A stretch of 56,992 bases of DNA from Candidatus Ozemobacteraceae bacterium (GTDB lineage: Bacteria; Muiribacteriota; Ozemobacteria; Ozemobacterales; Ozemobacteraceae): contig CALLCO010000118.1 of NCBI GenBank assembly GCA_937998695.1, positions 1 to 56,992 of the forward strand. The letters are read 5' to 3'. Numbering within the stretch: the first letter of the stretch is position 1; each line of letters starts with the position of its first letter. The notes below the pieces were generated by a model that searched no databases, had not been told where the DNA came from, and was given only the letters and a program-made list of their open reading frames with translations. The position numbers and the translations under genes are program-made. Shown here piece after piece: positions 16,501 through 56,452 of the stretch.

Positions 16501-16522
16501 CGGATGTTTCAAATACGGTAGA

Positions 16523-18846: not shown

Positions 18847-18849
18847 GGG

Positions 18850-29509: not shown

Positions 29510-29987
29510 ATGCCGTGAATCGCTCGAAAGCGATCGTTGGCCGGCACCGCAACAGGTCGCCCAGCTCCACGTTGTCATCGAGAATGGCCAGCCGCTTCAT
29601 GTCACCCTCCGTCCGCATTTCGTCCCAGGCTCCTGCAGGCGGGCGGCTCCCGGCAACGGTCGGCGGGTTCCGGTTCCTCAAGAAAGGCAAATCCGGCGCG
29701 TGTCTTCCTCCCCGGCCAAGGGATCCCGTTCGTAATCGTGATCGGCTGCCGGAGCGGCAAAGCCGCCTCGGCCCCGCCAAGGAAATCCCCGATCTTTTGC
29801 CGGGCCAGCCTCCTCCAGGCTTCCCCGCCACGGGGAAGGTTGCCTGTGCCGGATGACCCTCGGCCTCACTTCGCTTCCGCCGGGGGACGGGGATGGGTTA
29901 CACTGTCTGCCGACCGGCCGAAGAGAAGGGAAGTCGGTCGGGCGTCGTCGGGGTCACCCGGCGTCACGGAAAGGAACGAGGCCGGTC

Positions 29988-35983: not shown

Positions 35984-36406
35984 GGCGATCGTGGTTGTAC
36001 CGCCCGGGCGGGCCGGCTTCCCCTGAGGGAGGGGTGCTACCCGTGCGGGAGAGCCGGCGAGCGGGCGGCTCCAGGATACCACCCTCGGCCGCCCGTCGGG
36101 AAGGAACGCTGTTGGCTCGCAGGAATGCTCCATTGGGCCAACGAGGCGGGTTGGCAGGTCGAATCGCGATCGACCTGCCAACCCGCGTGAACAGGGCAGT
36201 GGAGGATCGCCGGCCGTCGGGAAACGGCCCGTCGGACCAAATGATCTGACGGGGTCGGGCGCGGGCCTTCAGTCCGGCCGGACGGTGACGGTCAGGTCGA
36301 AGACCTGGCTGGCATGCAGGAACCGCTCGACAGTCAGGAGGACTCCTCCGGCGACTGGACTGGCCGTGGGGGGCGGGTCTCCCGTGGTTCCGGCGATGGC
36401 CCATCC

Positions 36407-36464
36407 GGCGGGAACGAAGGCGGTGACGGCGTGCCGGCGGGAACGAAGGCGGTGACGGCGTGCT
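36407..36464. repeat. 29-bp perfect-but-one tandem duplication
   Basis: ggcgggaacgaaggcggtgacggcgtgcc followed by ggcgggaacgaaggcggtgacggcgtgct, then ggcggg again. Confidence 0.85.
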
Positions 36465-38492: not shown

Positions 38493-38952
38493 ACGTCGTG
38501 CCCCCGACCTTGGCTTGGGTGATTCCCGGCGTTGCGGCATGGACCGCGAGCTTTTCCACATGAGGGGAGGTCAGCCATCGCCGGTCCGGTTTCCCGCCGC
38601 CCTGCCTTGCGGAATGGATCAGAAGCCCGATTGATCCCTGTGTGGTTCTGCGGGCTCTCCTGCCCGGGTGCAGATCCCGGAGAGATCGTCCTTGCCCGGG
38701 CACCTGCCCCCGGACCAAAAGAGCCGGCAGCTTGTCCTGGCGAGACAGTCGAGGGAAAACTCCCGGCAGGGAAATTTATTTCTCTCCTGATGAAATGGGT
38801 TTCATTCCGGTTTCCCGCCTCCTACAATAATGGTGGCGGACTGCGGCTCCTGCCGGAGCGCGGACCGGGCCGGGGGCCCGCTGGAACCTGGACGGCAGCG
38901 CTATTGCTGGGCAAGGAGCGAGTTCCCCGGAATTCCCGACAGGAGTGTCTCG

Positions 38953-40302: not shown

Positions 40303-41686
40303 CGGGGAACCGGCCGGCGCGATCCTCGTCGTCGATGACGAGGCGGGCTATCGGACCCTGTTTTCCTCGGTGCTGCGCCAGGCGGGATACACGGTCGTCA
40401 CCGCCGACAGCGGCCGGGAAGCCCTGGAACTGGTTGGGCGTCGTCCCATCCGGCTGGTGGTGCTCGACCTCGTCATGCCCGACCTCGATGGCCTGGAGGT
40501 CTGTCGCCGGCTCCGGGCACGCGATCCCGCCCTGCCCGTGGTGTTCCTGACCGCCTACGGGTCGATCCCGTCGGCGGTCGAAGCGATGCGGGAAGGGGCG
40601 GCCGATTACCTGACCAAACCCCTGGACCGGATCGACCAGCTGCCCGAGATGGTGACCCGCATCCTGGGGAGGGCCGCCGCTTCCCCTGCCGTCAAGGAGA
40701 AAGCGGGGCCAGCCATCGGCCCGGTCGGCGGCCAGCCCGGGCCGACCATTCTGACGGCCGATCCAGGAATGTTGGCCATCCTCGAGCAGGCCCGTCGCAT
40801 CGCCCGGAGCGACGTGACGGTCCTGCTCACCGGCGAATCGGGAACGGGGAAAGAGGAACTGGCGAAGTTTCTGCACGCCCACAGCCCGCGACAGGGGCGG
40901 CCGATGGTGACGGTGAACTGTGCCGCCATTCCCGAGAATCTGATTGAGAGCGAGTTGTTCGGGCACGAGAAGGGGGCCTTCACGGGGGCCGTCGACACTC
41001 GGGCGGGACGGTTCGAGGAAGCCCACCGGTCGACCCTGTTCCTCGACGAGATCGGGGACCTGCCGCTGGCCCTGCAACCCAAGCTGCTGCGGGTGCTGCA
41101 GGATCGGGAGGTGCGCCGGGTGGGCGGCCGGGCCCCCTTCGGGGTGGACTTTCGCCTGATCGCGGCCACCAACCGTTCGTTGCGGGACGAGATCAAGGCG
41201 GGGCGCTTCCGGGAAGATCTGTTCTACCGACTGTCGGTGGTATCCCTGCATCTGCCCCCCCTGCGGGAACGTCCTGGGGACATCGCTCTGCTGGCCGGCC
41301 ATTTTGTGACGGTGTTCGCCGCCCGGGCGGGACGGTCCGACCTGCGCCTGGCCCCGGAAACGCTCGCCGCGCTGCGCGAACATTCCTGGCCGGGCAATGT
41401 CCGCGAACTCGCCAACTGCCTGGAGGCAACGGTCCTGCTGGCCGAGGGCCCGCTCATCCGGCCGGGTGACATTCATGGTTGGGGAGTGACGGGCAGTGGC
41501 GGACCGGCCGATGAACCATCGGTGACCAACCCTCGCGAGGAGGCCGAGAAGCGGGTGATTCTCGAGACGCTGGCCCGCGCGGGGGGGTCTCGGAAAGAGG
41601 CCGCCCGCCTTCTGGGGATGACCCCCCGCAATCTCTTCTACAAGCTGCGAAAGTACGGGATCTCGAAAGGGGAAGCCCCCCGCTGA
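40283..41686 (+). CDS. sigma-54-dependent response regulator (NtrC family)
   Basis: Receiver domain (ILVVDDE..VVLDLVMPDLDG..LTKP). AAA+ domain (VLLTGESGTGKE, ESELFGHEKGAFTGA = GAFTGA). C-terminal HTH (AARLLGMTPRNLFYKLRKYGI). Confidence 0.9.
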   Translation: MTGPRPDGEPAGAILVVDDEAGYRTLFSSVLRQAGYTVVTADSGREALELVGRRPIRLVVLDLVMPDLDGLEVCRRLRARDPALPVVFLTAYGSIPSAVEAMREGAADYLTKPLDRIDQLPEMVTRILGRAAASPAVKEKAGPAIGPVGGQPGPTILTADPGMLAILEQARRIARSDVTVLLTGESGTGKEELAKFLHAHSPRQGRPMVTVNCAAIPENLIESELFGHEKGAFTGAVDTRAGRFEEAHRSTLFLDEIGDLPLALQPKLLRVLQDREVRRVGGRAPFGVDFRLIAATNRSLRDEIKAGRFREDLFYRLSVVSLHLPPLRERPGDIALLAGHFVTVFAARAGRSDLRLAPETLAALREHSWPGNVRELANCLEATVLLAEGPLIRPGDIHGWGVTGSGGPADEPSVTNPREEAEKRVILETLARAGGSRKEAARLLGMTPRNLFYKLRKYGISKGEAPR

Positions 41687-43288: not shown

Positions 43289-44401
43289 TTAAAGGTGCTT
43301 GCCGAGGATCTTCACATGGAAAACCCCGTTGTTGTCGAAGTGACCGAAGCAGCGGCGGGCGTCGCCGTCGGACCAAGCATAGAACTCGTGGGTGCAGCCC
43401 GGCACCGGTTCGCCCTCCAGGGATTTGAAGCGCAGGCTGCTGGGAATGCGGTTGGGATCGCGGTCCGATTCCAGGTAGCGGGCCAGCTCATCGATCCGCT
43501 CGTTGAGGTCGAACCGGCGGCGCAAAGGCAGGTCGGCGCAGTGGTTCAGGAACTGCCCGGCCAGCTGCAGTCGGGGGGAGGGGGAGTCCCAGATACGTTC
43601 CTTGTACAGCGTCTGCTTGGATGTCTCCCAGTACAAGCCGCCCCAGGTCGACAAGCCGGCGCGGCCCTCAAGAACGGTCAGCAATGCCTCGGGAATGCCG
43701 GCGGTCTCGGCCGTGGGCACCTCGCCTCCCCAGCCCAGGCGACGGAACAGCGGCAGCCTCGACCGGACCAGCTCCCCGTCGTCGATCCGCAGGGGCAGCC
43801 GTGGGATGCGTAGCATCTCGGCGCTGCTCTCGAACCGATAGACGATCTCGTCGGCCCACAGCATGCCGAGAGGGACCATTGCGCCCATCAGTCCCTTGAA
43901 CGCCCCGGTCAGGTGGAAGACGACCCGGTACTGGCGGTCCCGGTAGCCGGGAATGGTCGTGGCGACCCACCGGACCAGGTGATCGATGCCCGAGTGGAAC
44001 TCGGCCAGGTCGGTGACCACCAGATCGGTGATCGGTACGGCGCTGGCCGCCAACCCCTGTCGCCGCAGCCAGTCGGCCAGCACCTCGCCGGCCCGCTGGC
44101 CCAACCAGGTGGCGGTGGTCAGGAGAAAATGCTCGTCGCGTCGGTCGGCGGCCGGGTCGGGCGTGGCAAGGCCCCGCAGACCGTTGATCTCGGCGCTGGT
44201 GCGGGGATCCGCCTGGCGCAGGCTCACCCCCTCCAGTCGTCGCGCGGCACGGTCGACCAGCTTTTCCAGGTTCTGGGCTTTCTGGCGGTCGGGGATCGTC
44301 GCCAGGTTCCCCGCCTGCCCCAGCCATTTCCGCTCCTCGTCTGTGGCAGAATTGAGAAACAGACTGATCCCGCAGGTGGAAACGATGACGCGGGGTGTCA
44401 G
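43289..44401 (-). CDS. CARF (APE2256/CARF7-type) - RelE-like fusion, Cami1-like ancillary effector
   Basis: N-terminus RVIVSTCGISLFLN. C-terminus LRFKSLEGEPVPGCTHEFYAWSDGDARRCFGHFDNNGVFHVKILGKHL is RelE/ParE-like. Start inferred as CTG 44401 overlapping the upstream TGA; the 144-codon leader in the ORF track is rejected. Confidence 0.6.
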   Translation of the reverse strand: MTPRVIVSTCGISLFLNSATDEERKWLGQAGNLATIPDRQKAQNLEKLVDRAARRLEGVSLRQADPRTSAEINGLRGLATPDPAADRRDEHFLLTTATWLGQRAGEVLADWLRRQGLAASAVPITDLVVTDLAEFHSGIDHLVRWVATTIPGYRDRQYRVVFHLTGAFKGLMGAMVPLGMLWADEIVYRFESSAEMLRIPRLPLRIDDGELVRSRLPLFRRLGWGGEVPTAETAGIPEALLTVLEGRAGLSTWGGLYWETSKQTLYKERIWDSPSPRLQLAGQFLNHCADLPLRRRFDLNERIDELARYLESDRDPNRIPSSLRFKSLEGEPVPGCTHEFYAWSDGDARRCFGHFDNNGVFHVKILGKHL

Positions 44402-47049
44402 GGGGTTCTCCTTTCCGGTCTGCGGGTGGGCGGGCGGCGGGGCGAGGCGGGCTGGGCCTGCACCAGCTCCCTGGCTTTGCGGTATTTGTTCCGCTCTTCC
44501 GGATCGAGAAAGGGGAGATGGCGCCGCAAGGCCTTCAGCATTCGCTGAAACGTCTCCTCCGCACCGAAGAAGTTTTCTCCCTCCAGTTCGTGGAACACGA
44601 TCTGGCGGGAGCCCTGACGGACCGTCACCTCGTCGAGATACAGGCCAAACTTCGACTGAAACAGGTCCTGGTCGACATGAACCAGCGGCAGAAACGTCCG
44701 GCGGTTGTGCAAGGTCAGAACCGGGGCCAAAGTATGGGGGGCGGGCAGGCTTTCGCCGTCCAGCAGGCGCACCAGTTCGGCCAAGGCCTGCCGGGGTCGG
44801 TTCCAGGCTGTGGCGGGCACGAACACTTCCCATTCGGGGCGCTCGGCGGTGGCATGGTTTTTCGCCTTGGGGCCCTTGTAGCAGAGGGTTCGCCTGGTTC
44901 GGCCGCGGATCAGCTCGGTGCGGAAGCGGATGCCCTTGCCCTGATGGAAAAGGTCCAGGTCCTTGGTGTCGAAATAGAGGTCTTCCACCTGTTGCTCTTC
45001 CCGCTTGTCCCGTTGGGGCCAGCAGCCCGCCAGATCAGACCAGGCGGCGTCCACGGCGAAGAACCGCTGGGCTGCCGTCCACTGCGCCGGCGTCAGGGCG
45101 AACTTGGCTTCATGCTCGCGGGTCGTCATTCTTTCGATCCTGACGTGGTTGACCCGTACTTTGGCCTTCTCCAGGATGCCATGGGTGAGATCGAGGTCGT
45201 CGGTAATGTTCTGGCGAATTTGTCTGAGATACTGGGCCTGACGCAGGGGATCGCCACTGATTGGCCCAGGCCGCACGATGATGGCCGGCGGTTTGATGAT
45301 CACCTGCGCCGATTGGTGGTGGAGCAGGTAGTGGTTTTGATACTGGTCACCCATCAGGCGAAGTTCCTTGGCCAGATCGAGGAATCGCTGGTCCTCCTGC
45401 TTCTGGTGGGATTTGTCGGCGGTTTCGAGAAAATCCAGGGCGCTGAGGGCCTTCCCCAGCCCTTCATCGGTTGCCGTGAACGTCGGCTCTTGCCAGCCGA
45501 TGGCGCGGGCGAACCGGGCCGCCAACGGCCATCGGCGCCGGGCACCCCGACGTCCCAGGAGGAGGCTGACCCGGTCGATGAGCGCGCGGAAGACCCGGTC
45601 CATCTCTGCCCGGGTCCGGTTTTGCTTCTCTTGGGCACTGATCATTAACCGCTTCTCTTGGACGTCGCACGCATCGCACAACTGGAGGACCGCGGCCAGT
45701 AGCCGGGTCCGGATGACGTGCCGACGGCTTTTTCCGTCGGTCAAGGTCAGGCAGACCTGCCGTGATACGGGAATCGGCGGCAGGTTCTTGCCGGTGCTGG
45801 CGGCCTGTTCCTCATCGAGCGGCCGGTCCTTCTGATGGTAGGAGACGATCTCGCCCACCACCGGGGCCAGAGCGCGGAACCGGGGGTCGATCTCGGGGCC
45901 CCCCCGTTCGACCATCCGATCGATGAGTTTCTGTGAGATCTGGCCGTGTTCCTTGCGGATCTTGAGGTAGGGGGTTTCCCCGCCATCGCCCGACATGCCG
46001 ATGTCATGAAGCCAGATCGCCGCCACCAGGGCGAAGACCTCGACGTCGCTGAGCCGCGGCCGGATCAGGGGGTGGATACTGCTGGCATGGTGCAGCACGC
46101 TGCAGGCATGTTGGAACCCGTGATCGACGAAATAGCGGTAGACGTCCCCCCCCCACAGCCGTTCCTGGCCGCTTGCGCTGCTCCAAGAGGCGATCAACTG
46201 GATGAGGGTTCCGCGTAGCCCGGGGTCCTTGATGGCACCGACCAGCGTGAACGACTGGGCGGCGTTGGCGGCCATGGCACTGGTGACGGGGGCGATGATC
46301 TCGTTGAACCGATCGAGCTCGGTGAGCGGGAAAACCCCGGCCTCGACCAGCGATCCGAACAGCCCGGACAGCGAAGGAGCCGGATACTCGACCAGGAAAA
46401 AATCCCGGGCCGGGCTGGCCAATCTGGCCTTGGCATGGTTCGGGCTGGGTGGCCCGGTGGACGGGTTGGGAGGCGGCGCGGGCCGGCCCGTTTCGGGCTG
46501 GGGTTCCGGCGAGGGGTGCAGATGATACAGGCGATTGTTGTCCTCGGGGTTGACGAACAGATGGTAGACCCGGTCATCCTCCTGGCGCGTCAGCATGGAC
46601 GCGAGCATCAGATCGGACGACATGGTCTTGCGCCCGCCCGCCAGACAGTAAAGGAACCGCGGCGGGGAAGTTCCTTGGTCAGATGATGGTCGGTACTTCT
46701 GGTTGAGATCTTGGATCGTCTGCAGGATCGTGGCTTTGCTGGAAGCCGCATCCTCGCTCGTCTTGATGTCCTCGAGCTCCTTCCCGTTCCGGTCTTTTAG
46801 GTAGACCATGGTCAGAGCCTCGCGGGGAAGGGGAGGGGCATCCTCGGCGAGCCGCTCCCGCAGGTGCTTTTCTTCCTCGGCCCAGTTGCGGCGCCCGCCC
46901 GCAAAGCGGGTGGCGAAGGCCCATACCCGGGTGATCGGGCCGTCCCGCCGCTCTTGTTTCACCCGCCAGGCATCGAGGAACTCCGTGAGCGTGGCGAACT
47001 GTGCCCCGAGGGTGATGAACAACCAGTTTTCGCGCCTTTGCCTGCTCAT
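44398..47049 (-). CDS. NE0113/Csx14-type CARF-like domain - HD phosphohydrolase - CYTH (triphosphate tunnel) fusion protein
   Basis: LFITLGAQFATLTEFLDAW and CLAGGRKTMS (nt 46621-46641). FQHACSVLHH, WLHDIGM (45994-46014), LLAAVLQLCDACD. EHEAKF = ExExK (45100-45117), DLYFDT, GIRFRTE, TLCYKGP. Confidence 0.7.
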   Translation of the reverse strand: MSRQRRENWLFITLGAQFATLTEFLDAWRVKQERRDGPITRVWAFATRFAGGRRNWAEEEKHLRERLAEDAPPLPREALTMVYLKDRNGKELEDIKTSEDAASSKATILQTIQDLNQKYRPSSDQGTSPPRFLYCLAGGRKTMSSDLMLASMLTRQEDDRVYHLFVNPEDNNRLYHLHPSPEPQPETGRPAPPPNPSTGPPSPNHAKARLASPARDFFLVEYPAPSLSGLFGSLVEAGVFPLTELDRFNEIIAPVTSAMAANAAQSFTLVGAIKDPGLRGTLIQLIASWSSASGQERLWGGDVYRYFVDHGFQHACSVLHHASSIHPLIRPRLSDVEVFALVAAIWLHDIGMSGDGGETPYLKIRKEHGQISQKLIDRMVERGGPEIDPRFRALAPVVGEIVSYHQKDRPLDEEQAASTGKNLPPIPVSRQVCLTLTDGKSRRHVIRTRLLAAVLQLCDACDVQEKRLMISAQEKQNRTRAEMDRVFRALIDRVSLLLGRRGARRRWPLAARFARAIGWQEPTFTATDEGLGKALSALDFLETADKSHQKQEDQRFLDLAKELRLMGDQYQNHYLLHHQSAQVIIKPPAIIVRPGPISGDPLRQAQYLRQIRQNITDDLDLTHGILEKAKVRVNHVRIERMTTREHEAKFALTPAQWTAAQRFFAVDAAWSDLAGCWPQRDKREEQQVEDLYFDTKDLDLFHQGKGIRFRTELIRGRTRRTLCYKGPKAKNHATAERPEWEVFVPATAWNRPRQALAELVRLLDGESLPAPHTLAPVLTLHNRRTFLPLVHVDQDLFQSKFGLYLDEVTVRQGSRQIVFHELEGENFFGAEETFQRMLKALRRHLPFLDPEERNKYRKARELVQAQPASPRRPPTRRPERRTP

Positions 47050-47372
47050 AGATGCACCCGCTTGTGGTTGGAGAGGTCGAGATCGACATAGCGTTTGGTT
47101 TCGAGGTCGAGGTAGGCGAAGATGATGTTCCGGCTCGAATGGGCAAAGGCCTGACCAAGGATGTAGGCGATGGCCACAGGCCCCGCCACCACCAGCCGGA
47201 TCGTTTCGCCCATGGCCGAGCCGGCGATGACGGCCCGCCCGAACTCGAGGGCGACCTCCAGGAACGGCTTCATGTCATGTTTGCAGGAGAACAGCACAAT
47301 TTCGTCCTGGGGGAACGAAACCGCCACGTCCTGTCGGATATGCTCGCGATTGGCCAGCACGAAGATCTTCAT
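47046..47372 (-). CDS. 108-aa hypothetical protein, translationally coupled between cas6 and the CARF-HD-CYTH gene
   Basis: GGAGGGA SD and ATG 47372. ATGA overlaps at both ends. Beta-alpha alternation with LVVAGPVAIAYILGQAF...IIFAY. Confidence 0.6.
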   Translation of the reverse strand: MKIFVLANREHIRQDVAVSFPQDEIVLFSCKHDMKPFLEVALEFGRAVIAGSAMGETIRLVVAGPVAIAYILGQAFAHSSRNIIFAYLDLETKRYVDLDLSNHKRVHL

Positions 47373-48352
47373 GAGATAACTCCCTCCACCGGATGCCAGG
47401 AATAGCGGCCCAGTCCGAACACGCTCCCTTTGCCGAGGTGCAGGGGCTGGGCGGCGGTCACGAAGGGGGTGAACCCCGCCGGGATGCCGGTCAGGGTGAA
47501 CGAGCCGACCCACCCCTCCAGCGGGATTTTGGTGCCCTGACTGAGAGAATAGCGGGACAGGCTCTCCCAATGCAGGTCGGGGTCGCGGACCGCCGCCCCC
47601 TCCAGATGCTGTAGGACCGGGCCGAAGGGAAAGTCCCGCCACTCGTCCTGGTCCCAGAATGCCGATAAGGACGAGACCCGGCGCAGCACTGATTTCAGGA
47701 AAGGCCGGGCTTCCATGGGGGTTCGCGCATCGACGCTGTTGGCCCAGCGGGTGGGGGTGTGCAGCACCACCCGGACGGCCCCGGGATCCTGAGGCGTGCC
47801 GCCGGCACGGGCTGGGCTCTTCTCGTCGGCTAGCTGCAGGGGTTTGATCTCAGGAAGGGGAAGATCCTCGAGCGTCGCCCGCTGCAGGGTGCCCTGAGCA
47901 TACAGGGCGACCGGCCCGGCAAGGGTGGACATCTCGATAGTCTCGAGACGGAAAGGATACCGACCGACCCCGAACCCCCGCTCGCCCGCCTCGGCGAGTG
48001 CAGCAGCGATCGCCGGGGCCCAACCGATGGCGCGGCCGATCAACACCACCTCGAAGGGCAGCGGGTCACCCGGCCGGAAGGCCGTCTGCTCGGCCTCGCA
48101 GCGGATGACGTAGGGATGGGGCGGCATCCGCATGTTGCCGAAGCGTGGAAGTTCCTCCTGGAAGGCCACATACAAGCCGAAATACAGGCATTCCTTCCGG
48201 TGCGGGCAATTGTCGCAGGGCGGCTGTCCCCGCCGGCAGCCGATCCGCACCAGGGCTCGGCCCAACGCCCCCCGCAACATCGGCGCCTTGAACGGCGGCA
48301 ACCGCCCTTCGCGGTTGGCCTGATAGTTCACTCGCAACGGCAGGATCTGCAT
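47369..48352 (-). CDS. cas6: Cas6 pre-crRNA endoribonuclease (RAMP)
   Basis: N-terminus PFKAPMLRGALGRAL with Cys cluster CDNCPHRKEC. C-terminal glycine-rich loop HLGKGSVFGLGRY. Confidence 0.75.
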   Translation of the reverse strand: MQILPLRVNYQANREGRLPPFKAPMLRGALGRALVRIGCRRGQPPCDNCPHRKECLYFGLYVAFQEELPRFGNMRMPPHPYVIRCEAEQTAFRPGDPLPFEVVLIGRAIGWAPAIAAALAEAGERGFGVGRYPFRLETIEMSTLAGPVALYAQGTLQRATLEDLPLPEIKPLQLADEKSPARAGGTPQDPGAVRVVLHTPTRWANSVDARTPMEARPFLKSVLRRVSSLSAFWDQDEWRDFPFGPVLQHLEGAAVRDPDLHWESLSRYSLSQGTKIPLEGWVGSFTLTGIPAGFTPFVTAAQPLHLGKGSVFGLGRYSWHPVEGVIS

Positions 48353-48364
48353 GGCGTCTGAAAA

Positions 48365-49789
48365 TCAGCCAAGGCCCAGGATGGTAAAATTGTTGCCGTC
48401 CCGCTGAACCCTGACGGTCAACGTGACCGACCTTTTCTTTGCCACCTGCTTCCGAATTTCTTCAAGCCGGTTGCCGAGCCAGCCGCCATCCTTGATCTCC
48501 ACGCTCTTTGGCTTGCCATCGAGTTGGAATTGGACCTTCCATTTCTGGCTGCCGGGATTGAACGTCACGGTGGCCTCAACCGGAGGGAGTTCCTCGGGGC
48601 GAATGGGAGTCGGGGCACGGGTGGTTGCCTGGCCTGCCTTCCCTGACGCTGACACCGTGGGAATGGGTACGGACCAGGGCTCGAAGGAGGGGAGCGTCTG
48701 GGGAAGGTTCTGATCGAGGGGGGCAAGGGGAACCCGGGGATTCTGCCCGAACCAGTCGGTCGAGGGATAGCGGCGATTGATCGGATCGGGAAACCGGAGA
48801 ATGGCTCGCAACGCCTTCAAATGGGGAAGCCCCATGTTCGGGGCGAGTCGCTGGTAGATCTCGGTGATCCAGGAGGTGAGTGCCTCGCCGGTCAGATGGT
48901 GTTCCCCACCTTTCCAGCTCTTGAACCGGGCGACGGGGTCGGGGAAGAGGTCGGCTTCGGCCAGCTGCAGCTGCACGCTGCCCAGCCCGGCCGCTTTCCT
49001 CTGCCCCAGCCGATGGGCCATGGTGCTCTCCAGGAGGAGCGAATAGACCAGGATGTCGAGGGCGCCCTTGTCCAGGTTGGTTAAAGAGATGACGAACCGG
49101 AAGGTCGCGTCCTTGGGGATCACCCGATCCAGGCACTTTTTCCGCGCATGATTCGAGGTGCGCACCTGGGAGCCATGGAAATAGAATTTGCGCCCGATGC
49201 GCTGGTTGGGCGGAAGAACGTAGAACGCCCGATGATGCGGCCGAGGTTGCATGAGTGGAATGATGGAAAAACCCCGCGCTGGCTGCAAATCCGGGTCTTC
49301 CGGCCGTGCCTCTCCGATCGCCACCTGGCCGAGGTGGTTCCTGCCGCCGGCTACCATGCCGAAGACCCGACAGGCCAGACACAGGTTGGCCGGATCCTGG
49401 CAGCCGCTGACCCCCTTTTCCTGCGTGACCTGGGGCAGATGGGCCGCCGGGACCACGTAATTCTGCGGCGTCCGGGTGCGGTACTCTCCCTTGTAGAGCC
49501 GCAAGCAGCTCTGGGAAACCGCCTCGAAGGTCGAGCGGATCATCCCCTTCAGGCTACTGCCAGGGATGACTAGGCGGCCGGCACTGGTCAGAAGGTACTG
49601 TTGTTCTTGATCCTGTTCCTTTTCCCCTCCCCGGCCGATGAACAGGGGCGACAAGGTGCGCAGGCGAACCACCAACCGGCCCGATGTGGTCTGGAAGCGA
49701 TCGTGTGGGGGGGCCGCTTGGCGGTCGACCCCGCTCTCCGGAAGAGGCACAAAATGGTAGGGGCTGTTGGGGTAGGCGGATTCAGGCAT
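48365..49789 (-). CDS. type III RAMP (Cas7-like) with C-terminal Lys-rich extension
   Basis: NSPYHFVPL, VIPGSSLKGMIRS, CLACRVFG, GRKFYFHG, GQRKAAGLG. GGAGGGAAG SD upstream of ATG 49789. ORF 48365..49954 trimmed. Confidence 0.7.
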   Translation of the reverse strand: MPESAYPNSPYHFVPLPESGVDRQAAPPHDRFQTTSGRLVVRLRTLSPLFIGRGGEKEQDQEQQYLLTSAGRLVIPGSSLKGMIRSTFEAVSQSCLRLYKGEYRTRTPQNYVVPAAHLPQVTQEKGVSGCQDPANLCLACRVFGMVAGGRNHLGQVAIGEARPEDPDLQPARGFSIIPLMQPRPHHRAFYVLPPNQRIGRKFYFHGSQVRTSNHARKKCLDRVIPKDATFRFVISLTNLDKGALDILVYSLLLESTMAHRLGQRKAAGLGSVQLQLAEADLFPDPVARFKSWKGGEHHLTGEALTSWITEIYQRLAPNMGLPHLKALRAILRFPDPINRRYPSTDWFGQNPRVPLAPLDQNLPQTLPSFEPWSVPIPTVSASGKAGQATTRAPTPIRPEELPPVEATVTFNPGSQKWKVQFQLDGKPKSVEIKDGGWLGNRLEEIRKQVAKKRSVTLTVRVQRDGNNFTILGLG

Positions 49790-50318
49790 GCTCACTTCCC
49801 TCCAGGTCCATGAACCTGATCCACTCGACCAGGCCTGACGCTTTCGACCGATACCGGCAGGCCCGAATCCAGGCCATGGTGCCGGGGCTTGCAAGGGGAT
49901 ACTGGCCGACTCCCGGGATCCGCTCCTCCCGGAAGGGTTGGCCCTCCGCCCCACGGCGCCCCCAGAGCTTATACCGAAGCGGCTGCCCGTCGGGGAAGGT
50001 CGTTTCGATCTCGTAGGCTTCCGGGGTCAGCACGGTCTGGGCCATCGGCCGCGGGCCGCCGCTGGACTCGGCCACCTGGCCGAGGGCCAGGCCGTGCCAG
50101 CGACCGTCGCTCCGTGGCCGCAGCCGGATCTCCCGGGTCGGGCCGAAGAACAGCAACCGATCGTGCCGGAGCCAGTCTTCGGGCAGGGCGATCTCCCGAT
50201 CGAACAACACCCGCAGCGGCGAATCCGCATACCGGAACGTCAGGCCGTCCTGATGTTTCTGGAACCACGCGGGCAGCTCGCCCGGGCCAAGGTCATACGC
50301 GATGACGCGCTCGTTCAT
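49782..50318 (-). CDS. csx19: Csx19-like type III-D-associated protein
   Basis: 178 aa in the position Csx19 occupies in III-D loci. YKLWG...EERIPGVGQYPL...WIRACRY...VEWIRFMDL resembles my recollection of the Csx19 pattern; no search was possible. Confidence 0.4.
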   Translation of the reverse strand: MNERVIAYDLGPGELPAWFQKHQDGLTFRYADSPLRVLFDREIALPEDWLRHDRLLFFGPTREIRLRPRSDGRWHGLALGQVAESSGGPRPMAQTVLTPEAYEIETTFPDGQPLRYKLWGRRGAEGQPFREERIPGVGQYPLASPGTMAWIRACRYRSKASGLVEWIRFMDLEGSEHA

Positions 50319-50334
50319 TTCGCTCTCCCGTCGT

Positions 50335-51264
50335 TCACTGAGCCACTCTGGGCAGCTTTCCCCCTTCGGCACAGGCAACGAAGATCTCGCTCAGGCTCGC
50401 GAGCACCGTTTCCCGGTCCGCGGCGGGAATGGCCAGGGACCATCGCAGGCCCTCCCGCTGCCAGGACTGGCCGAGCGCTTCGGACAGGTTCAGCGAATCC
50501 GGACCATCGACCAGACGATACGCCTTTCCCGTCTGGCCCAACTGGGCGCCGATGCCCCGCATTTCCCGACCGGGGGAACTCTTGCCGAACTGGTACAGAT
50601 GCCACCCGGTCAGGTGGGCCTTGATGCCGCCCAGCCCCCGCGTCTTCCCCGAACCGATCCGGATGAACCCCCCCATGAAATCGCGCAGCGTCAGGGCCAG
50701 CAGACCCATCTGCCACATCTCGAAGTTCTGGATGGCGATCCGCGTGCGGAACACGCTTCCCGCCGGGACCACCGAATACTCGAATTTGGCCCCAGGGTAA
50801 GCCCCCCCGGAGATCCGGTCGATCCCGACCCCGTCGCGCGACTCGGTCAGCAGCTTCCGATCGGGCACCGCATCCGCCGACTGGAACCGGCCGATGAAAT
50901 GGGTCGAGCCGAACAGGCGGCAGGCCGGGCAGGAGTCGGCGTAAGCCTCGCTGGGCGAGACTTTCTTGTCACCGTGGCTGCGCTGGTCGAAGGCCCGACC
51001 GCAGAAGCGGTCCGCCCCTTCCCGCACGAAGGGGTTGCAGACCGGCAGGTTCAGCGTGCGCAGGATCTTTTCCCCGTGGGCCCGGAACGCGCCTTTGAGA
51101 GTCGTTCCCGGAATGACCTGCACGGCCTCTCCTTTGCGGTTGCGCGTCTCTAGCCATTGGGCGTCGGGCCCGGACAGGGTGATGCCGCCCGCCTTGACCA
51201 GCAGGGGGTCGATCGCTTCGAGGTCGAGATCCCAGATCGATTCGTTCACCAGGGTTTTCAGCAT
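50335..51264 (-). CDS. cas7: Cas7 (Csm3/Cmr4-like RAMP)
   Basis: VIPGTTLKGAFRA, CPACRLFGS, SRDGVGIDRISGGA, IGSGKTRGLGG. AGGAGAGG SD. Confidence 0.8.
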   Translation of the reverse strand: MLKTLVNESIWDLDLEAIDPLLVKAGGITLSGPDAQWLETRNRKGEAVQVIPGTTLKGAFRAHGEKILRTLNLPVCNPFVREGADRFCGRAFDQRSHGDKKVSPSEAYADSCPACRLFGSTHFIGRFQSADAVPDRKLLTESRDGVGIDRISGGAYPGAKFEYSVVPAGSVFRTRIAIQNFEMWQMGLLALTLRDFMGGFIRIGSGKTRGLGGIKAHLTGWHLYQFGKSSPGREMRGIGAQLGQTGKAYRLVDGPDSLNLSEALGQSWQREGLRWSLAIPAADRETVLASLSEIFVACAEGGKLPRVAQ

Positions 51265-51277
51265 GTTCCTCTCCTTG

Positions 51278-52078
51278 TCAGGCCAGGCTCTCGGCATGCT
51301 GCACGAGGAACCCGATGGGGTTGGGAACCAGAGGCACCTGCCCGGTTTTCAGGTATTCCTTCCGGAGGCCGGGGTCGGCCAGATTCAGGGCGCGCACCTC
51401 GATCTCCCCTTCCTCGATGAAGACCTTTCCCAGGCCTCTGGAGGTCAGGCCGCCGAGCGCGATGTGACCCCGGGCCAGTTCCAGCATACCGAGGGAGGCA
51501 ATGCCGAGGGTGCGGGGGTCGGGAGCCTCCAGGGTGATCTCCAAGTCGAAGACCGCGTAGGAGGATACCACTTCGTAGTCATACTTGATGCCATCGACGG
51601 CCCGGTGGCTGTCCCGGTCGATCCCCACGCCGTCGCGGGTCTCGACCAGCGGCAGGCCAGGGTTGCGCAGGGGGGCGTCGGCGAAGAACACCCGGGCTTG
51701 GTTGAAGCTCGAGCCGAACGTCAGGCACATCGGACAAACGCTTTTCTTGATCAGGTCATGGCGGGCCTGGGCGTCTTGCCGCAGCGGCTCCAGGCGCTTC
51801 TGGAGTTCTTTGGCCGGGGGGGCGGCGGGGTCGGCCCCGGGGCAGGTCGAAGCCGGGTCGAACAGCCGGCAGGTAGGCAGGCCGATGACCGGCAGGAGGC
51901 GTTCCAGATGGGAGCGCATCGCCCCCTTCAGCGAGGAGCCGGGGACGAAAGGCTGGTGAAGGAAGTCTTTCAGAACCGGGCTGTCCACGGTCTCGCCGCG
52001 CTCGCCCGAGCCGATGTGCAGGGCCGACCGCAACCGGAGCGGAGCCCGGAAAACGTACCGATGCAGGGGTGCAGACAT
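51278..52078 (-). CDS. cas7: Cas7 (Csm3-like RAMP)
   Basis: LHIGSGERGE, FVPGSSLKGAMRS, CPMCLTFGS, TRDGVGIDRDSH, GGLTSRGLG. Confidence 0.8.
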   Translation of the reverse strand: MSAPLHRYVFRAPLRLRSALHIGSGERGETVDSPVLKDFLHQPFVPGSSLKGAMRSHLERLLPVIGLPTCRLFDPASTCPGADPAAPPAKELQKRLEPLRQDAQARHDLIKKSVCPMCLTFGSSFNQARVFFADAPLRNPGLPLVETRDGVGIDRDSHRAVDGIKYDYEVVSSYAVFDLEITLEAPDPRTLGIASLGMLELARGHIALGGLTSRGLGKVFIEEGEIEVRALNLADPGLRKEYLKTGQVPLVPNPIGFLVQHAESLA

Positions 52079-52080
52079 GG

Positions 52081-52566
52081 TCAGAGACCTCCTTGCGTGG
52101 CGTCGAGATAATCGTGGTGGGCGCGCAGATGCTGGCAGAACTCCCGGAACAGATCCAGGAGCAGCCGGTCGCGGGACAGTTGAAGAAGCGTGGATGCCGC
52201 GCTTTTCCCGCTTCCGATCAGGGCTAGAACCTCCTGCTCGACCTGCGGCGCCAGGGTGGTCTGCCACTCCTGGAACATCTTGGCCAGGGGGCCATAGAAT
52301 TCAGCAAGATCTTGCCGGCCGGCCTGGTGATCCAGATAGTGCTTGATCTCCTGAGGATTTTTGGCCGCCAGGGCGAGGTTCATCAGGTTGGCCACCTGAT
52401 GCTTGGTGTGGGAGGCGGTCTTGCCGCCCTTGCCGGATGCTCTGCCTTGCCCCCCCTTGGTCAGAACTTCCTGGGCCAGAGGATACAACCGGAGTTGGGA
52501 GATTCGCCGCTTGACCCGGTGCCAGGCGGCCTGTTCGGCTTCCAACCACAATGCGTCGGCCATCAT
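52081..52566 (-). CDS. Cas11-like small helical subunit (copy b)
   Basis: 161 aa, all-helical and charged. Sits in the position of csm2/cmr5 between csx10 and cas7. No motif-level proof. Confidence 0.45.
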   Translation of the reverse strand: MMADALWLEAEQAAWHRVKRRISQLRLYPLAQEVLTKGGQGRASGKGGKTASHTKHQVANLMNLALAAKNPQEIKHYLDHQAGRQDLAEFYGPLAKMFQEWQTTLAPQVEQEVLALIGSGKSAASTLLQLSRDRLLLDLFREFCQHLRAHHDYLDATQGGL

Positions 52567-52576
52567 CGCCCTCCTG

Positions 52577-53041
52577 TCATGCCGCGGCGAACCGGGCATG
52601 GGCGACCAGGTGGGAGATCGTTTCCCGGGTCAGCTCGAGCCAGATGAGCAGTCGCAGCTCCTCCGGGGTGTGCGAATTGCCGGAAATCCTGGCCAGGACC
52701 GGACTGCACGCCAATTCGTCGGCCCGCTTCCGGAGCGGACCTTCGAGAAACTCGACCAGATCGCGCCCGAAATGCCGAGCCTGCCAGCGCTCGGACGAAC
52801 CCTTCTTGCCGGTCTGGCGCTTCACGAAGTCGAGGATGTCGGTGACCAGGTCGGTCCGCAGAGCCAATCCTTCCAGCTTCTGCAGGGAAGTGTGGGCTTT
52901 CTCCTGGCCGAAGATGGCCTGGGCATTCTCGGCCAGGGCCTTGATCTCCGGCATGACTTTCATGCCGTGCGGATACAGGCGCTCCTGCTCGAAGCGCAGG
53001 AGCTGTCGGATGGCGGCTTGCACTAGCAGCTCATTGGACAT
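52577..53041 (-). CDS. Cas11-like small helical subunit (copy a)
   Basis: 154 aa, all-helical. Overlaps the csx10 stop by 11 nt. Confidence 0.45.
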   Translation of the reverse strand: MSNELLVQAAIRQLLRFEQERLYPHGMKVMPEIKALAENAQAIFGQEKAHTSLQKLEGLALRTDLVTDILDFVKRQTGKKGSSERWQARHFGRDLVEFLEGPLRKRADELACSPVLARISGNSHTPEELRLLIWLELTRETISHLVAHARFAAA

Positions 53042-54224
53042 GTTCTCTCACCTCGCAATGAATCGGATGGGCGAAGACAACGATCCCCAGCCCTTCGGCC
53101 CGGCGATACCCCAGGCCCTTCCGTTCGACCTCGGACAACACCTTGGCCACCGCGCCAAGGTCGGCCGTGCGGGCCTTCCAGACCAGCACGGAACCGGGCA
53201 TAAAGGCCAGATCGCTGGGCGCCGGCAGCTGCGGCAGCGAGTTCCAGCCACCAACCCGCTCGAGATCAGCCATGGTCAAAACCGGCGCGAGCCGCTCTGC
53301 CGTCAGGCAGGTGCCGGCCGGATCAAGGGCGTTGGCCATGGTGAAGGGGTCGGGTTCGATCGTGAACCGTCCCAGGGCGTCGGGGAGCACAACGGGGGTC
53401 ACGCACAGCATGGGAAGCAGCAGCTCGCCGGCTGGTGGGCCGGCCACTTCTTGAAACCGCTGCAACCGCTCCGCCAATGGAGGCAGCCCCCAGGGCTGGC
53501 GCTCGGGCTCGACCGTGGCGATCTTCCATTGGCCAAGGCCCCGGGTGCGTGACGCCCCGATACGCACCGTCCGCCCGGTCAGGGCGGCCTTCACCTGGGC
53601 GCCTCGCCCGGCCGGCAGGGTGAGCACTGCCGACCAGCCTCCGGTCGGGAGAATGAACTCCTCGTCATACAGAAAGCCGGGGGCCACCGTTCCCAACAGG
53701 TGGTCCATGGCGGAGTGGGTGCGGTCACTGATTTCCATCTTGACCTCGCGGTACAACGGACGGCCTGACCCCTGCACGCGCTGAAAACCCACCCCCCGCA
53801 GGGGTTTCAACGGAGTCAGGGCATGGTCCGGTCCTTTTTCGCAGATGGGGCAATGGCTGGGGATGCTGACCTTCGGGTCCCGCTGCCGGCGCAGGAGGGT
53901 GAGCAACAGGTCGATGAACCCGTGCTTCTCCTGGCCGATGGCCAACCCGGGGAACCGCTTGCACGACCGCAGGGAAGCCGGAATCGGCAGGGTGGGCCAG
54001 CCCTCCGGTGTCGGGCGGGCATCCCCGATGACCAGACGCCCGGCATACAGATCCTCGGCGAGTGCCGCATCGGCCGCCTGGAGCAGGCCAGCCAGCGCCC
54101 CCCGCAGAGTTCGGCCCGGAATCCGCTGTTCGGTCTCGCGCAGGTTGCCCAGACTCAACCGCCGGCTGACCAGGAAAGGCGCTTGCGGTTCGAAACCGAT
54201 CGTCCACCGTTCCATGGCGGTCAT
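53031..54224 (-). CDS. csx10: Csx10 (Cas5-like RAMP of type III-D)
   Basis: IPGRTLRGALAG near the N-terminus, Cys cluster HCPICE, internal IGASRTRGLG, C-terminal GLGYRRAEGLGIVVF glycine loops. Follows cas10 and one intervening cas7 gene. Confidence 0.65.
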   Translation of the reverse strand: MTAMERWTIGFEPQAPFLVSRRLSLGNLRETEQRIPGRTLRGALAGLLQAADAALAEDLYAGRLVIGDARPTPEGWPTLPIPASLRSCKRFPGLAIGQEKHGFIDLLLTLLRRQRDPKVSIPSHCPICEKGPDHALTPLKPLRGVGFQRVQGSGRPLYREVKMEISDRTHSAMDHLLGTVAPGFLYDEEFILPTGGWSAVLTLPAGRGAQVKAALTGRTVRIGASRTRGLGQWKIATVEPERQPWGLPPLAERLQRFQEVAGPPAGELLLPMLCVTPVVLPDALGRFTIEPDPFTMANALDPAGTCLTAERLAPVLTMADLERVGGWNSLPQLPAPSDLAFMPGSVLVWKARTADLGAVAKVLSEVERKGLGYRRAEGLGIVVFAHPIHCEVREHVQ

Positions 54225-54874
54225 ACGACTCCCTCCTTGCCTTCCCCTGGGGCACTCCAGCGCCAGGGCTCAGGCCCGAGGCGGCCTTCCACCCTGACCA
54301 CCCGACAGGCCCCGAGACCCCGTGAGGTTTCCGCCCCCAACCGGTTCAGACTGAGCAATGCCGCCTGCAGCAGCGGCAGATCCTCCTCCTGAACCTGGCC
54401 GGCGACCGCGAACGCGAACTCCAGCCCCGACGGCAGCGTCTCCGTCCGTACCAGCAGTCCCGGCATGGCCGTGCCCAGGATCCGGTCGATGCTGACGTGG
54501 GCGCGGGAAGCGCTTAGGTGGCGCAAGGCGGCCGTCGCCGCCTGCCCGTCCCCCATGATGGGCAGGGCATCCCGGAAAAAAATCGGCCCCGGGTGCCGTG
54601 GGTTGCCGAACATGCGGCATACTGCGCAGGGCTCCCCGGGGCAGAGATCGAAGGGTGACCGGCACCCGGGCCTGCCTGTTACCGGCTGGCAAAGGCGCTC
54701 GGCCAGGTCGCGCAAGGCCCCTTTCAGGGCCGAGGCGGGCACCACCGGACGGCCGTCCGGGGTGCGCTGGACCAGGGCCTTGAGCCCTGGCCGAGCCCGG
54801 CCCGACCCCAGACGAAAGGCGGTCCGAAAGCGGAGAATGACAGGGTCAAGCTGGATCTCCAGCATCGTGGTCAT
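54221..54874 (-). CDS. cas7: Cas7 (Csm3-like RAMP)
   Basis: FRLGSGRA, VVPASALKGALRD, CAVCRMFG, HVSIDR, GAETSRGLG. Confidence 0.75.
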   Translation of the reverse strand: MTTMLEIQLDPVILRFRTAFRLGSGRARPGLKALVQRTPDGRPVVPASALKGALRDLAERLCQPVTGRPGCRSPFDLCPGEPCAVCRMFGNPRHPGPIFFRDALPIMGDGQAATAALRHLSASRAHVSIDRILGTAMPGLLVRTETLPSGLEFAFAVAGQVQEEDLPLLQAALLSLNRLGAETSRGLGACRVVRVEGRLGPEPWRWSAPGEGKEGVV

Positions 54875-54880
54875 GGCTGC

Positions 54881-56452
54881 TCACTCCTTCTCCACCGGAA
54901 CCAGGTCGGCCAGTTCCAGCAGGTCCCATAGGGGGGTGGTCCAGGGGGGGGTTCCGGCGGTTTCCCGCCAGGGATACCGGTGCCTCTGGAAGCCCTGGGC
55001 ATCCCCCTCGAAGATCTTCAGCAGCCGACGCTTTTCTTCCGGTTTCATGCGGGCAGCCTGCTTCATGAAGGTGGCCATCGCCTCCTCGCGGGAAACGGTC
55101 AACGCCTCCGCCAGCTCGTGCCGTCGGCGGGCGGGGATGGCGGCCAGGCCGCCGGCCAGCCGCCAGGCCGTTTCCAACGTCTCCAGGTCGTAGGGGCGCT
55201 CGATGATCTGGGCCAGTTCGGTGGTGCCGTCCCGGTCGCGCAAAGTGCAGGCCTGGCGCCGAAAGTCCTCGATTGAATGGGCCGACCCCGTGTAGAGCAG
55301 ATGGAAATCGAGACAGCCGCCGAAGCCCGGACTGTCCTTCCCCTTGGTCTTGCGAAAGGCAAGCTTCTTGGCGCTTTGCACCAGTTGTTCGGCCATATCG
55401 TGTATCGCCGCGATCGGGTAGGAGGCGGGCGCGACCACGATGCCAGCCGACAGGGTCAGGCCGACCTTCCGGCCCAGCCCCGTGGCCGTCAAATCGCGGA
55501 ACGCCTTCATGATGCTCATCGCCAGCGGGAAGATCCGGTCGGCCGCCGCCACCAGGATCAGGTCGTCGCCGCCGCACATCAACGGCAGGAAGGGAGCCGG
55601 CCGGCCAGGGTGGCCCGGGAAGACCTCTCGCACCGCCTGGCATACCGCATCTCGCATTGCCCGCTTGACCGTCTCCGAAAACGTCCGGAACGCTTCCCGG
55701 GTTTCCAGGCTCTGGAGGATGTTTCCCATGCCGTTGCCGTCGGCGTAGAGAAACCCCATGGCCGAACCCGAATCGCCGCTTCCCACCAGGTCCTGGAAAT
55801 CGTCGGGAAAATGGCCTTGCGGCATCTGGGCGGCGGCCAGAAATTCCCGGTCCTGTTTCGCCATCTCCTCCCGCAGCTTGTCTTTGCGCGCGCAGAGCCA
55901 GCACAGGGGCAGGCTGGCCGCCTCATGGTCCTGCGCCATCACGGAAGCCGGTTCCCCACACCATTGGCAGGCCTGCAAGAACGGGAACTGGAGATCGGCG
56001 ATCGGCCTCGACCGCCGCTGGCTCTTGGCCAGGGCCAGCTTTTCCCCCAGCCGCGCGAAGGCCCGCTTGAAGCCGGCGCCGGCCAGTTCCGCTTCGGTCA
56101 CCTGATCCTGGACCATGGTGACCGAAGCCACCCCGTCCGTTTCCCGCGCAATGTACTGCCGGGCTTCCCGCAGAAAACGATCGACCTGGGTCTCCTCCTG
56201 CCCTTCGAGCAACCCTGACCCGCCCGCCAAATAGACGGTTCGCAGGCCCAGGTCCTCGGCCTTCTTCCGCAACGCGGCATCCAGGCGGGTGAGCATGAAG
56301 CTCCCCGCCCGGATCTGCCGGAGTTTGCGGGAGGAGTAGATGAATTCCTTGATGGAGTCGGTATCCAGGGAAATGAGATACACGGTCCGGGGCTCCTCCC
56401 TCTCGACGTAGGTGTGTCGGTCTTGGTAGCACAACTCCTCGACGGGTGGCAA
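54881..56452 (-). CDS. cas10: Cas10, minimal (no HD domain), GGDD cyclase motif intact
   Basis: LISLDTDSIKEFIYSS (Palm1), Zn cluster CQWCG..CWLC, FLYADGNGMG, MCGGDDLILV (GGDD = nt 55562-55573). Only 523 aa from TTG 56452, or 500 aa if GTG 56383 after GGGAGGAG is the start. Confidence 0.8.
   Translation of the reverse strand: MPPVEELCYQDRHTYVEREEPRTVYLISLDTDSIKEFIYSSRKLRQIRAGSFMLTRLDAALRKKAEDLGLRTVYLAGGSGLLEGQEETQVDRFLREARQYIARETDGVASVTMVQDQVTEAELAGAGFKRAFARLGEKLALAKSQRRSRPIADLQFPFLQACQWCGEPASVMAQDHEAASLPLCWLCARKDKLREEMAKQDREFLAAAQMPQGHFPDDFQDLVGSGDSGSAMGFLYADGNGMGNILQSLETREAFRTFSETVKRAMRDAVCQAVREVFPGHPGRPAPFLPLMCGGDDLILVAAADRIFPLAMSIMKAFRDLTATGLGRKVGLTLSAGIVVAPASYPIAAIHDMAEQLVQSAKKLAFRKTKGKDSPGFGGCLDFHLLYTGSAHSIEDFRRQACTLRDRDGTTELAQIIERPYDLETLETAWRLAGGLAAIPARRRHELAEALTVSREEAMATFMKQAARMKPEEKRRLLKIFEGDAQGFQRHRYPWRETAGTPPWTTPLWDLLELADLVPVEKE

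Follow-up and report, generated by a model that had tools for sequence, protein, structure and literature searches.

A type III-D CRISPR operon of Candidatus Ozemobacteraceae encodes a predicted CARF-gated effector that joins an HD-CE phosphohydrolase to a CYTH triphosphate-tunnel domain

The window analysed here is a whole stretch of 56,992 nucleotides (nt) from Candidatus Ozemobacteraceae bacterium (assembly GCA_937998695.1, contig CALLCO010000118.1, positions 1-56,992, forward strand), on the minus strand of which lies a type III-D CRISPR operon recognised by Pfam and PADLOC models. The penultimate member of this operon is a complete gene (44398..47049, minus strand) that starts with ATG and encodes a protein of 883 amino acids (aa), in which Pfam detected three domains, each above its gathering score: an N-terminal CARF sensor, an HD-CE domain and a C-terminal CYTH domain. 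An earlier reading of this DNA (the original prediction) had proposed one open reading frame composed of four regions, namely CARF, Pro-rich linker, HD and CYTH; translation verified the frame as a single gene, the Pfam domains together with the sequence upheld the anatomy, and the Cas_NE0113, HD-CE and CYTH models all exceeded their gathering cut-offs (23, 27 and 23.2 bits, respectively). The expected motifs were located at residues 138-144 (GGRKTMS), 346-352 (WLHDIGM, nt 45994-46014) and 645-650 (EHEAKF, nt 45100-45117), and the catalytic motifs of both HD-CE and CYTH proved to be intact after alignment of the family. The Pro-rich linker (residues 178-216; 46402..46518, minus strand), read directly from the sequence, is present as described but peculiar to the window protein: it is largely missing from the aligned proteins P0002, P0003, P0005 and P0007 and from the homologue with 58% identity, and is an insertion specific to the lineage of the window protein.

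The CARF sensor occupies residues 1-177 (46519..47049, minus strand). It was matched by Pfam Cas_NE0113 (PF09623) over residues 84-172 (E 3.3e-13, 50.3 bits) and by the PADLOC CARF5 and CARF3 models (E 1e-10 to 1e-15), and it carries the motifs ITLGAQFATLTE and CLAGGRKTMS. Conservation extends to both motifs of the ligand site: the N-terminal G-x-S/Q loop reads ITLGAQF, and the GG[RT]K that follows beta-4 lies in CLAGGRKTMS. The residues G139, R140 and K141 are invariant across five lineages in the alignment. As suggested by these matches, the domain belongs to the Cas_NE0113 / CARF5-CARF3 clade and is a predicted sensor of cyclic oligoadenylate (cOA). The test for the NE0113/Csx15 ring-nuclease equivalog (NCBIfam TIGR02584) failed, with 38 bits against a cut-off of 80.65, and the window CARF is related to the NE0113/Csx15 family without being its equivalog. 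The nearest solved relative in the profile search of the PDB was the CARF domain of Cad1 (9c69, E 1.4e-4), and another structure among the closest solved CARFs, 9ebt, bears the annotation 'ring nuclease and adenosine deaminase'. Cad1 (CARF-adenosine deaminase; Crf5/CARF5), a member of the same PADLOC CARF5 clade, is an effector acting on the nucleotide pool that is activated by cyclic tetra- or hexaadenylate (cA4/cA6) and converts ATP to ITP (Makarova 2025, Supplementary Table 2). Unlike the window protein, Cad1 carries a deaminase as effector domain, and no sequence similarity between the two extends beyond the CARF domain.

The catalytic core of the HD-CE module spans residues 300-470 (45640..46152, minus strand), and its Pfam model (PF24391) matched residues 306-468 with E 4.1e-15 and 56.6 bits, the generic Pfam HD model staying slightly under its cut-off (19.7 versus 22 bits). 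The key residues H310, H314, E337, H348-D349, R365, H368, H405, D459, D462 and R467 are invariant or nearly so in alignments of 29 HD-CE sequences and of seven family members, and the metal-binding H...HD...D set is present (H314, H348-D349 and D459/D462, plus H310, H368 and H405). As far as can be judged from the sequence, the core is a metal-dependent phosphohydrolase of the HD superfamily with intact active-site residues. It is followed by a C-terminal extension of the module (residues 471-634; 45148..45639, minus strand), delimited by family conservation and by the AlphaFold2 model described below, in which long helices, a Q569-x3-H573-Y574-x2-H577 motif and a beta-hairpin ending near P594 can be distinguished. 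The extension is conserved in the family and modelled with high confidence. Since it is also shared by most HD-CE proteins lacking CYTH, in which the profile matches reach approximately position 570-590, this region, which an earlier note had left unassigned as a gap, belongs to the HD module. A sequence search of the PDB with the extension returned no meaningful relative.

Assignment of the HD region to SAMHD1/Dgt-type enzymes, as put forward in the original prediction, received no specific support and was not refuted either; by its Pfam profile the region belongs to the HD-CE family. Against solved structures the HD-CE profile matched PDE6 (E 0.0015) and the deoxynucleoside triphosphate (dNTP) triphosphohydrolase EF1143 (E 0.0017) equally weakly, both matches being confined to the H..HD..H core and that of EF1143 extending over 76 positions. 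The SAMHD1-type motif HDxGHxPFSH is absent from the window protein, in which the corresponding sequence is LHDIGMSG. The Foldseek search of the PDB revealed neither a significant HD match nor a SAMHD1-like fold for the HD part, with CYTH matches dominating the list; the best HD-type match was PDE10A, weak at E 0.066. What the protein has in common with SAMHD1, EF1143 and Dgt is thus the HD superfamily and the aligned core, whereas the missing motif, the equal score of PDE6, the lack of a significant fold match and the conserved C-terminal extension of HD-CE (QxxxHYxxH plus hairpin) set it apart from them.

The CYTH, or triphosphate-tunnel, domain covers residues 635-865 (44455..45147, minus strand), and its Pfam model (PF01928) matched residues 685-826 (E 1.1e-9, 38.9 bits). 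Its key residues are E645-x-E647-x-K649, R708-x-R710, K725, R737/E739/E741, R784 and E821/E823/E825. No residue of the catalytic set (ExExK, RxR, K, ExE, R and ExExE) varies among five lineages whose identity is only 17-51%; R737 lies outside this set and is invariant in the three-sequence alignment A1. Profile searches of the PDB matched the domain to PH1819 (E 6.7e-6) and to SaTTM, a triphosphate tunnel metalloenzyme (TTM) of Sulfolobus (E 4e-4). A full-length AlphaFold2 run with a three-sequence alignment was unusable (pLDDT 45.6, with the CARF region at about 45), and an alignment to which trimmed CYTH homologues had been added (A7) was discarded, MAFFT having set the CYTH rows on HD columns. 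A second run, covering residues 225-883 with 28 homologues including trimmed HD-CE homologues, reached a pLDDT of 88.3 and a pTM of 0.88 (its CYTH part was built on five sequences) and modelled HD-CE, extension and CYTH as one rigid body, with antiparallel strands in the CYTH region.

Comparison of this model with the PDB by Foldseek placed the inorganic triphosphatase YgiF of E. coli, solved with inorganic triphosphate (PPPi), at the top of the list (5a60, E 6.6e-8, 22% identity), followed by other TTM/CYTH chains, with 28 such chains at E < 1e-3 and a highest TMt of 0.72. The fold expected by the original prediction was therefore recovered for the CYTH part, and no significant match was obtained for the HD part. 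Triphosphatase TTMs superposed at TMt of about 0.7, versus 0.55-0.57 for the class IV adenylate cyclases 3n0z (E 1.6e-5) and 2fjt (E 2.7e-5), and the RNA triphosphatase Pct1 was found at E 1.3e-3. Among viral models, the matches comprised CYTH proteins and mRNA 5'-triphosphatases of giant viruses, the latter at E 4e-5 to 1e-3. Assignment as a CyaB class IV cyclase was given less weight, with the equivalog model TIGR00318 giving 11.8 bits against a cut-off of 57.95 and the cyclase structures ranking below the triphosphatases. The domain is predicted, on the basis of the model, to be a catalytically competent, YgiF-like triphosphate tunnel enzyme. It shares with YgiF, SaTTM, AtTTM3 and PH1819 the fold (Foldseek E 6.6e-8 to 1e-5) and the full set of acidic and basic tunnel residues. 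Those proteins are stand-alone or CHAD-fused housekeeping enzymes, whereas the window CYTH forms the C-terminal part of a predicted CRISPR effector, has helical insertions and extends over about 230 aa, compared to about 180 aa.

The operon runs on one strand from Cas10d to a CARF-RelE gene, with its genes overlapping or adjacent. Cas10d (54881..56452, minus strand, about 520 aa) was identified by Pfam Cas10-Cmr2_palm2 and by the PADLOC models for Cas10 (E 1.4e-73) and Cas10d (E 1.5e-43); it has no HD domain and retains an intact GGDD cyclase motif (CGGDDLILV), so that signalling would be the only action of the complex beyond cutting of target RNA. The type III CRISPR linkage claimed for the 883-aa protein was thereby confirmed, with a Cas10 that is predicted to be cyclase-competent. 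The genes of the effector complex follow on the minus strand (48365..54874), their starts being maximal and uncurated: a Csm3-like Cas7 (54221-54874), Cas5/Csx10 (53031-54224), two Cas7 genes (51278-52267 and 50335-51297), a small subunit candidate (49782-50378) and a large Cas7 (48365-49954). As a group they were identified by the Pfam RAMP and Cmr3 models, by PADLOC Cas7_IIId and Cas5_IIId/Csx10 and by synteny with the related loci L001 and L003. Cas6 (47369..48352, minus strand) was recognised by Pfam CRISPR_Cas6 and PADLOC (E 1.5e-70). No CRISPR array was found within the window.

Directly upstream of the CARF-HD-CE-CYTH gene, and joined to it by the predicted ATGA overlap, which was verified, lies a gene for a 108-aa mini-SAVED-like protein (47046..47372, minus strand; PADLOC SAVED4--SAVED E 9.2e-6, C-terminal part of Pfam SAVED E 0.0012). 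This gene is the best conserved of the operon, with 82% and 72% identity in two syntenic loci, compared to 68% and 41% for Cas10 and 58% and 30% for the target protein in the same loci. Its family comprises seven members found, no PDB relative was detected by sequence, and locus L017, which has no CARF-HD-CYTH gene, holds it immediately ahead of an APE2256 CARF gene. The 108-aa protein may be a mini-SAVED cOA binder or ring nuclease.

The downstream and last gene of the operon encodes a Cami1-like CARF-RelE of 370 aa (43289..44401, minus strand), matched by Pfam Cas_APE2256, by PDB Cami1 (8phb, E 1e-4) and over its full length by PADLOC CARF7--CARF_RelE (E 2e-96). Its coupling through CTGA was likewise verified: the probable start is a CTG at 44399-44401 that overlaps the TGA stop of the target gene and is preceded, 7 nt upstream, by an AAGGAG Shine-Dalgarno sequence, and no ATG, GTG or TTG lies ahead of the conserved N-terminal strand. 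Cami1 is a cA4-activated ancillary effector of type III systems. It is a protein different from the one studied here, and its homologue bears only on the inference of the signal and on the presence of two CARF proteins in the operon.

A word-indexed search of 5.8 billion clustered proteins returned only three to five proteins even with a seven-sequence profile, among them two full-length relatives, one from Ca. Ozemibacter sibiricus (Rifleibacteriota; 58% identity) and one from an uncultured bacterium (30%). In both loci (L001 and L003) the gene order is Cas10, Cas7s/Cas5, Cas6, the 108-aa gene, CARF-HD-CYTH and an APE2256 CARF protein. In L001, a second, divergent type III locus (13937-22149, minus strand; Cas10-like, RAMPs and Csx19) is situated directly downstream of the syntenic operon, and the corresponding position of the window is taken by a ferric-reductase-like gene and a two-component system. 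When 1.84 billion representatives were searched exhaustively with a profile and the results checked with Pfam, a wider family emerged that includes AT-rich members, one of which was recovered as a fragment (P0006). In Wallbacteria, a stand-alone CYTH gene (L006, 8884-9396, plus strand; 170 aa, ExExK intact) separates cas6 from the gene of the fusion protein (P0007), and the UBP16 member (P0005), encoded upstream of cas10 (L008, 285-3188, plus strand; 967 aa), carries an extra N-terminal CYTH and thus has the architecture CYTH-CARF-HD-CYTH; both lineages have two CYTH domains per HD. In P0015 the catalytic residues of CYTH are lost, and its neighbour is a Card1 nuclease (L015).

Searches by tblastn with the Cas proteins of the window showed that the Wallbacteria, UBP16 and ADurb.Bin243 loci hold related Cas10, Cas7 and Cas6, the Wallbacteria and UBP16 members adjoining related Cas10 operons in which Cas10 is also devoid of an HD domain. 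Linkage to type III genes was consistent in this small sample: every member with usable context (L001, L003, L006, L008 and probably L007; fewer than 10 loci) lies in or beside type III genes. The metagenome scan yielded one truncated locus only (L014), and tblastn against plasmids gave CARF-level matches only. The CARF-HD-CYTH fusion is very rare.

The HD-CE domain has a much wider distribution than the fusion. It is fused to APE2256-type CARFs in P0036, P0042, P0043 and P0059 and to an NE0113 CARF without CYTH beside Csm6, and it occurs at the N-terminus of STAND NTPases, with HEPN or Schlafen (AlbA) domains, as well as on beta-propeller proteins. The CARF-HD-CE relatives in L020 and L021 are linked to type III systems, and in the III-D operon of L021 the CARF-HD-CE protein is the only recognisable CARF effector; its gene (P0036, 8001-10052, plus strand) lies directly after Csx19. 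Because HD-CE is a portable output domain that mostly occurs without CYTH, it would be the effector in its own right, with CYTH as an accessory.

The nearest CYTH domains were found in YgiF-like CYTH-CHAD proteins, in a tandem CYTH-SIR2 protein with a defence-island-like setting and in a tandem CYTH protein with an MCU-like membrane domain. In L023 an 815-aa protein (P0139; 4029-6476, plus strand) combines an N-terminus of 244 aa without assignment, a CYTH domain and an inosine-uridine nucleoside hydrolase, and its gene is flanked on each side by a 496-aa gene with cas2; the N-terminus showed no similarity to the profile of NE0113-type CARFs. It is a further CYTH fusion linked to CRISPR, with a leaning towards nucleotide catabolism. 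The association of CYTH with CARF-HD-CE takes several forms: C-terminal in the window protein, additionally N-terminal in P0005, as a separate upstream gene in Wallbacteria and within the CARF7 lineage of PADLOC. These fusions seem to have arisen independently, and if so, the repeated recruitment of CYTH would speak for a coupling of the HD and CYTH chemistries. Recurrence of CYTH in conflict proteins hints at a wider role of this fold in immunity.

The combination of CARF, CYTH and HD has been present in computational catalogues since 2020, and the claim of a new class made in the original prediction goes too far. PADLOC v2 contains the models CARF7--CARF_HD and CARF7--CARF_CYTH_HD (PDLC01929), to both of which P0036 and P0042 are strong matches; the CARF7 naming reportedly follows the 2020 CARF classification. 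The full window protein matched neither model at E <= 0.01, and its HD-CYTH part gave no significant match to PDLC01929 and PDLC01933, the best being CARF_HD with E 0.09. Among CRISPR-linked CARF proteins, Altae-Tran et al. 2023 (PMC10910872) list UAS-59 'CARF_CYTH_HD' with three loci. These catalogue-only proteins resemble the window protein in being CRISPR-associated and in joining a CARF sensor to CYTH and HD. Their sensor, in contrast, is of the CARF7/APE2256 type and that of the window protein of the CARF5/NE0113 type, and the domain order differs, CYTH being C-terminal in the window protein; UAS-59, from which the window protein is set apart by description, has 1078 aa compared to 883 aa. 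By its sequence, the window protein would represent a separate lineage of a catalogued but unstudied CARF+HD+CYTH kind.

No paper characterising any CARF-HD-CYTH protein was found in the searchable literature, nor any on 'HD-CE' as a protein domain or on 'CARF-HD', in agreement with the earlier statement that no CRISPR effector containing CYTH had been characterised. The same literature contained no paper tying CYTH to CBASS or defence, the CBASS query being poorly built. CYTH goes unmentioned in a 2024 effector survey, a 2022 review and the 2025 classification, and a CARF-HD effector family appears in none of them; the effector domains listed by the 2025 classification include HD-family DNases.

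The window protein is probably an effector that is triggered by infection and acts against nucleotides or nucleic acids. In the reading that we prefer, to which we assign a probability of about 0.8, it is an HD-CE effector that is gated by cOA and has an active CYTH enzyme as accessory. Binding of target RNA would cause Cas10 to make cOA, most likely cA4, a ligand that we infer from the Cami1-like CARF-RelE in the same operon together with the Cad1-type CARF. A dimer of the N-terminal CARF5-type domain would bind this signal and switch on HD-CE, a putative metal-dependent phosphohydrolase used elsewhere as a toxic output domain. The chemistry that we favour is the simplest one that uses both domains: HD-CE would strip nucleoside triphosphates ((d)NTPs) to nucleoside and PPPi, and CYTH would hydrolyse the triphosphate. 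Hydrolysis of PPPi would make the reaction irreversible and relieve product inhibition, the nucleotide pool would collapse and phage replication would stall. Depletion of dNTPs is an established antiviral strategy. This two-step model is plausible and consistent with a YgiF-like CYTH; the specific route from NTP to PPPi to pyrophosphate (PPi) stays tentative, its chances lying somewhat below even. It is doubtful that HD-CE and CYTH constitute a new two-enzyme nucleotide-destruction cassette of prokaryotic immunity, released by binding of cOA to CARF. In a variant of the scheme, CYTH may act on a triphosphorylated signal or on a by-product of Cas10, thereby providing a second, catalytic checkpoint for the effector.

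Several observations weigh against the preferred reading. HD-CE does not appear to be specifically SAMHD1/Dgt-like, since PDE6 matches it as well as EF1143 does, and the HD-CE domain of P0012 weakly matches the Cas3-HD model of PADLOC (E 9e-4). Most HD-CE effectors lack CYTH and that of P0015 is dead, so that removal of PPPi cannot be essential to the function of HD-CE. Moreover, a second bona fide CARF effector (RelE or Card1) is present in each CYTH-bearing locus, and a regulatory or signal-clearing role would fit too.

The first alternative to be weighed makes HD-CE a nuclease of the Cas3/Cas10-HD or RNase-Y kind, activated by cOA, with CYTH acting on nucleic-acid ends. HD-CE would then supply the degradation that the HD-less Cas10 of the operon cannot, and CYTH might, for example, strip the 5'-triphosphate of primary transcripts in the manner of TTM RNA triphosphatases, thus licensing their degradation. 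Nucleases usually occupy effector positions like that at the N-terminus of STAND NTPases, where HD-CE is found together with HEPN and Schlafen/AlbA domains, and the many conserved His and Asp residues fit a binuclear HD phosphodiesterase site. The Cas3-HD similarity of P0012 points in the same direction, yet the window protein itself showed no match to the PADLOC Cas3-HD model. Likewise, the CYTH model does match RNA triphosphatases (Pct1 and those of giant viruses, at the E values given above), but far more weakly than YgiF and the small-molecule TTMs, and to our knowledge no bacterial CYTH is an RNA triphosphatase. No nucleic-acid-binding domain was detected in the window protein. We regard a nuclease as unlikely.

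A second alternative takes the protein for an off-switch: CARF would bind cA4 and might also cut it, oligoadenylates, cyclic or linear, would be broken down by the HD phosphodiesterase, and linear pppA(pA)n intermediates released by Cas10 would lose their 5'-triphosphate to CYTH, so that the neighbouring Cami1-type effector is reset. The name of TIGR02584 and Makarova 2025 (Supplementary Table 2) indicate that NE0113/Csx15-type CARFs include ring nucleases. The annotation of 9ebt, the weak similarity of HD-CE to cyclic-nucleotide phosphodiesterases and the second CARF effector beside every CYTH-bearing member with context are in line with such a role. On the other hand, HD-CE widely serves as output domain of STAND NTPases, which do without cOA signalling, CARF-HD-CE is the sole recognisable CARF protein in the III-D operon of L021, and the window operon already has the mini-SAVED candidate for signal handling. 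Known ring nucleases are also far smaller than a three-domain enzyme of 883 aa, and an off-switch is distinctly unlikely.

Very improbable, finally, is a signal converter in which cOA activates CYTH as a class IV-type cyclase producing cAMP or another cyclic nucleotide monophosphate (cNMP) and HD is the limiting phosphodiesterase: class IV adenylate cyclases belong to the CYTH superfamily, the model matches 3n0z and 2fjt and HD-CE is as close to class I cNMP phosphodiesterases as to anything, but triphosphatase TTMs fit better than cyclases (TMt 0.7 versus 0.55), the cyaB model stays far below its cut-off, the operon shows no evident receptor for a secondary messenger and HD-CE, occurring mostly without CYTH, cannot have the CYTH product as its substrate.

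Type III CRISPR systems delegate defence to CARF and SAVED effectors, and each new output has revealed new immune chemistry; among the outputs characterised so far are RNases, DNases, proteases, membrane pores, an ATP deaminase and an NADase. To these, our analysis adds a structural model of residues 225-883, a list of conserved catalytic residues and evidence that HD-CE is a general effector domain of conflict systems, linked to both CARF and STAND proteins, for which CYTH has been recruited several times. If the NTP/PPPi mechanism is true, CRISPR signalling would be connected to nucleotide depletion of the SAMHD1 kind, and the protein would be the first CRISPR effector to use triphosphohydrolase chemistry. 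The mechanism would also provide inorganic triphosphatases with a first clear biological role in immunity and a CYTH enzyme with its first immune role, and a ligand-switchable nucleotide hydrolase might serve as a tool.

Elsewhere in the window, with no evident link to the CRISPR operon, two groups of signalling genes were observed. The first consists of two adjacent, overlapping genes (29853-35983, plus strand), whose products, each of about 1000 aa, carry HAMP together with class III adenylate/guanylate cyclase domains. At 36405-36462 (plus strand) a 29-nt unit, CCGGCGGGAACGAAGGCGGTGACGGCGTG, occurs twice in perfect tandem; it is not a CRISPR repeat. The second group, after the cyclase genes, is a pair encoding a histidine kinase and a sigma-54 response regulator (38830-41686).

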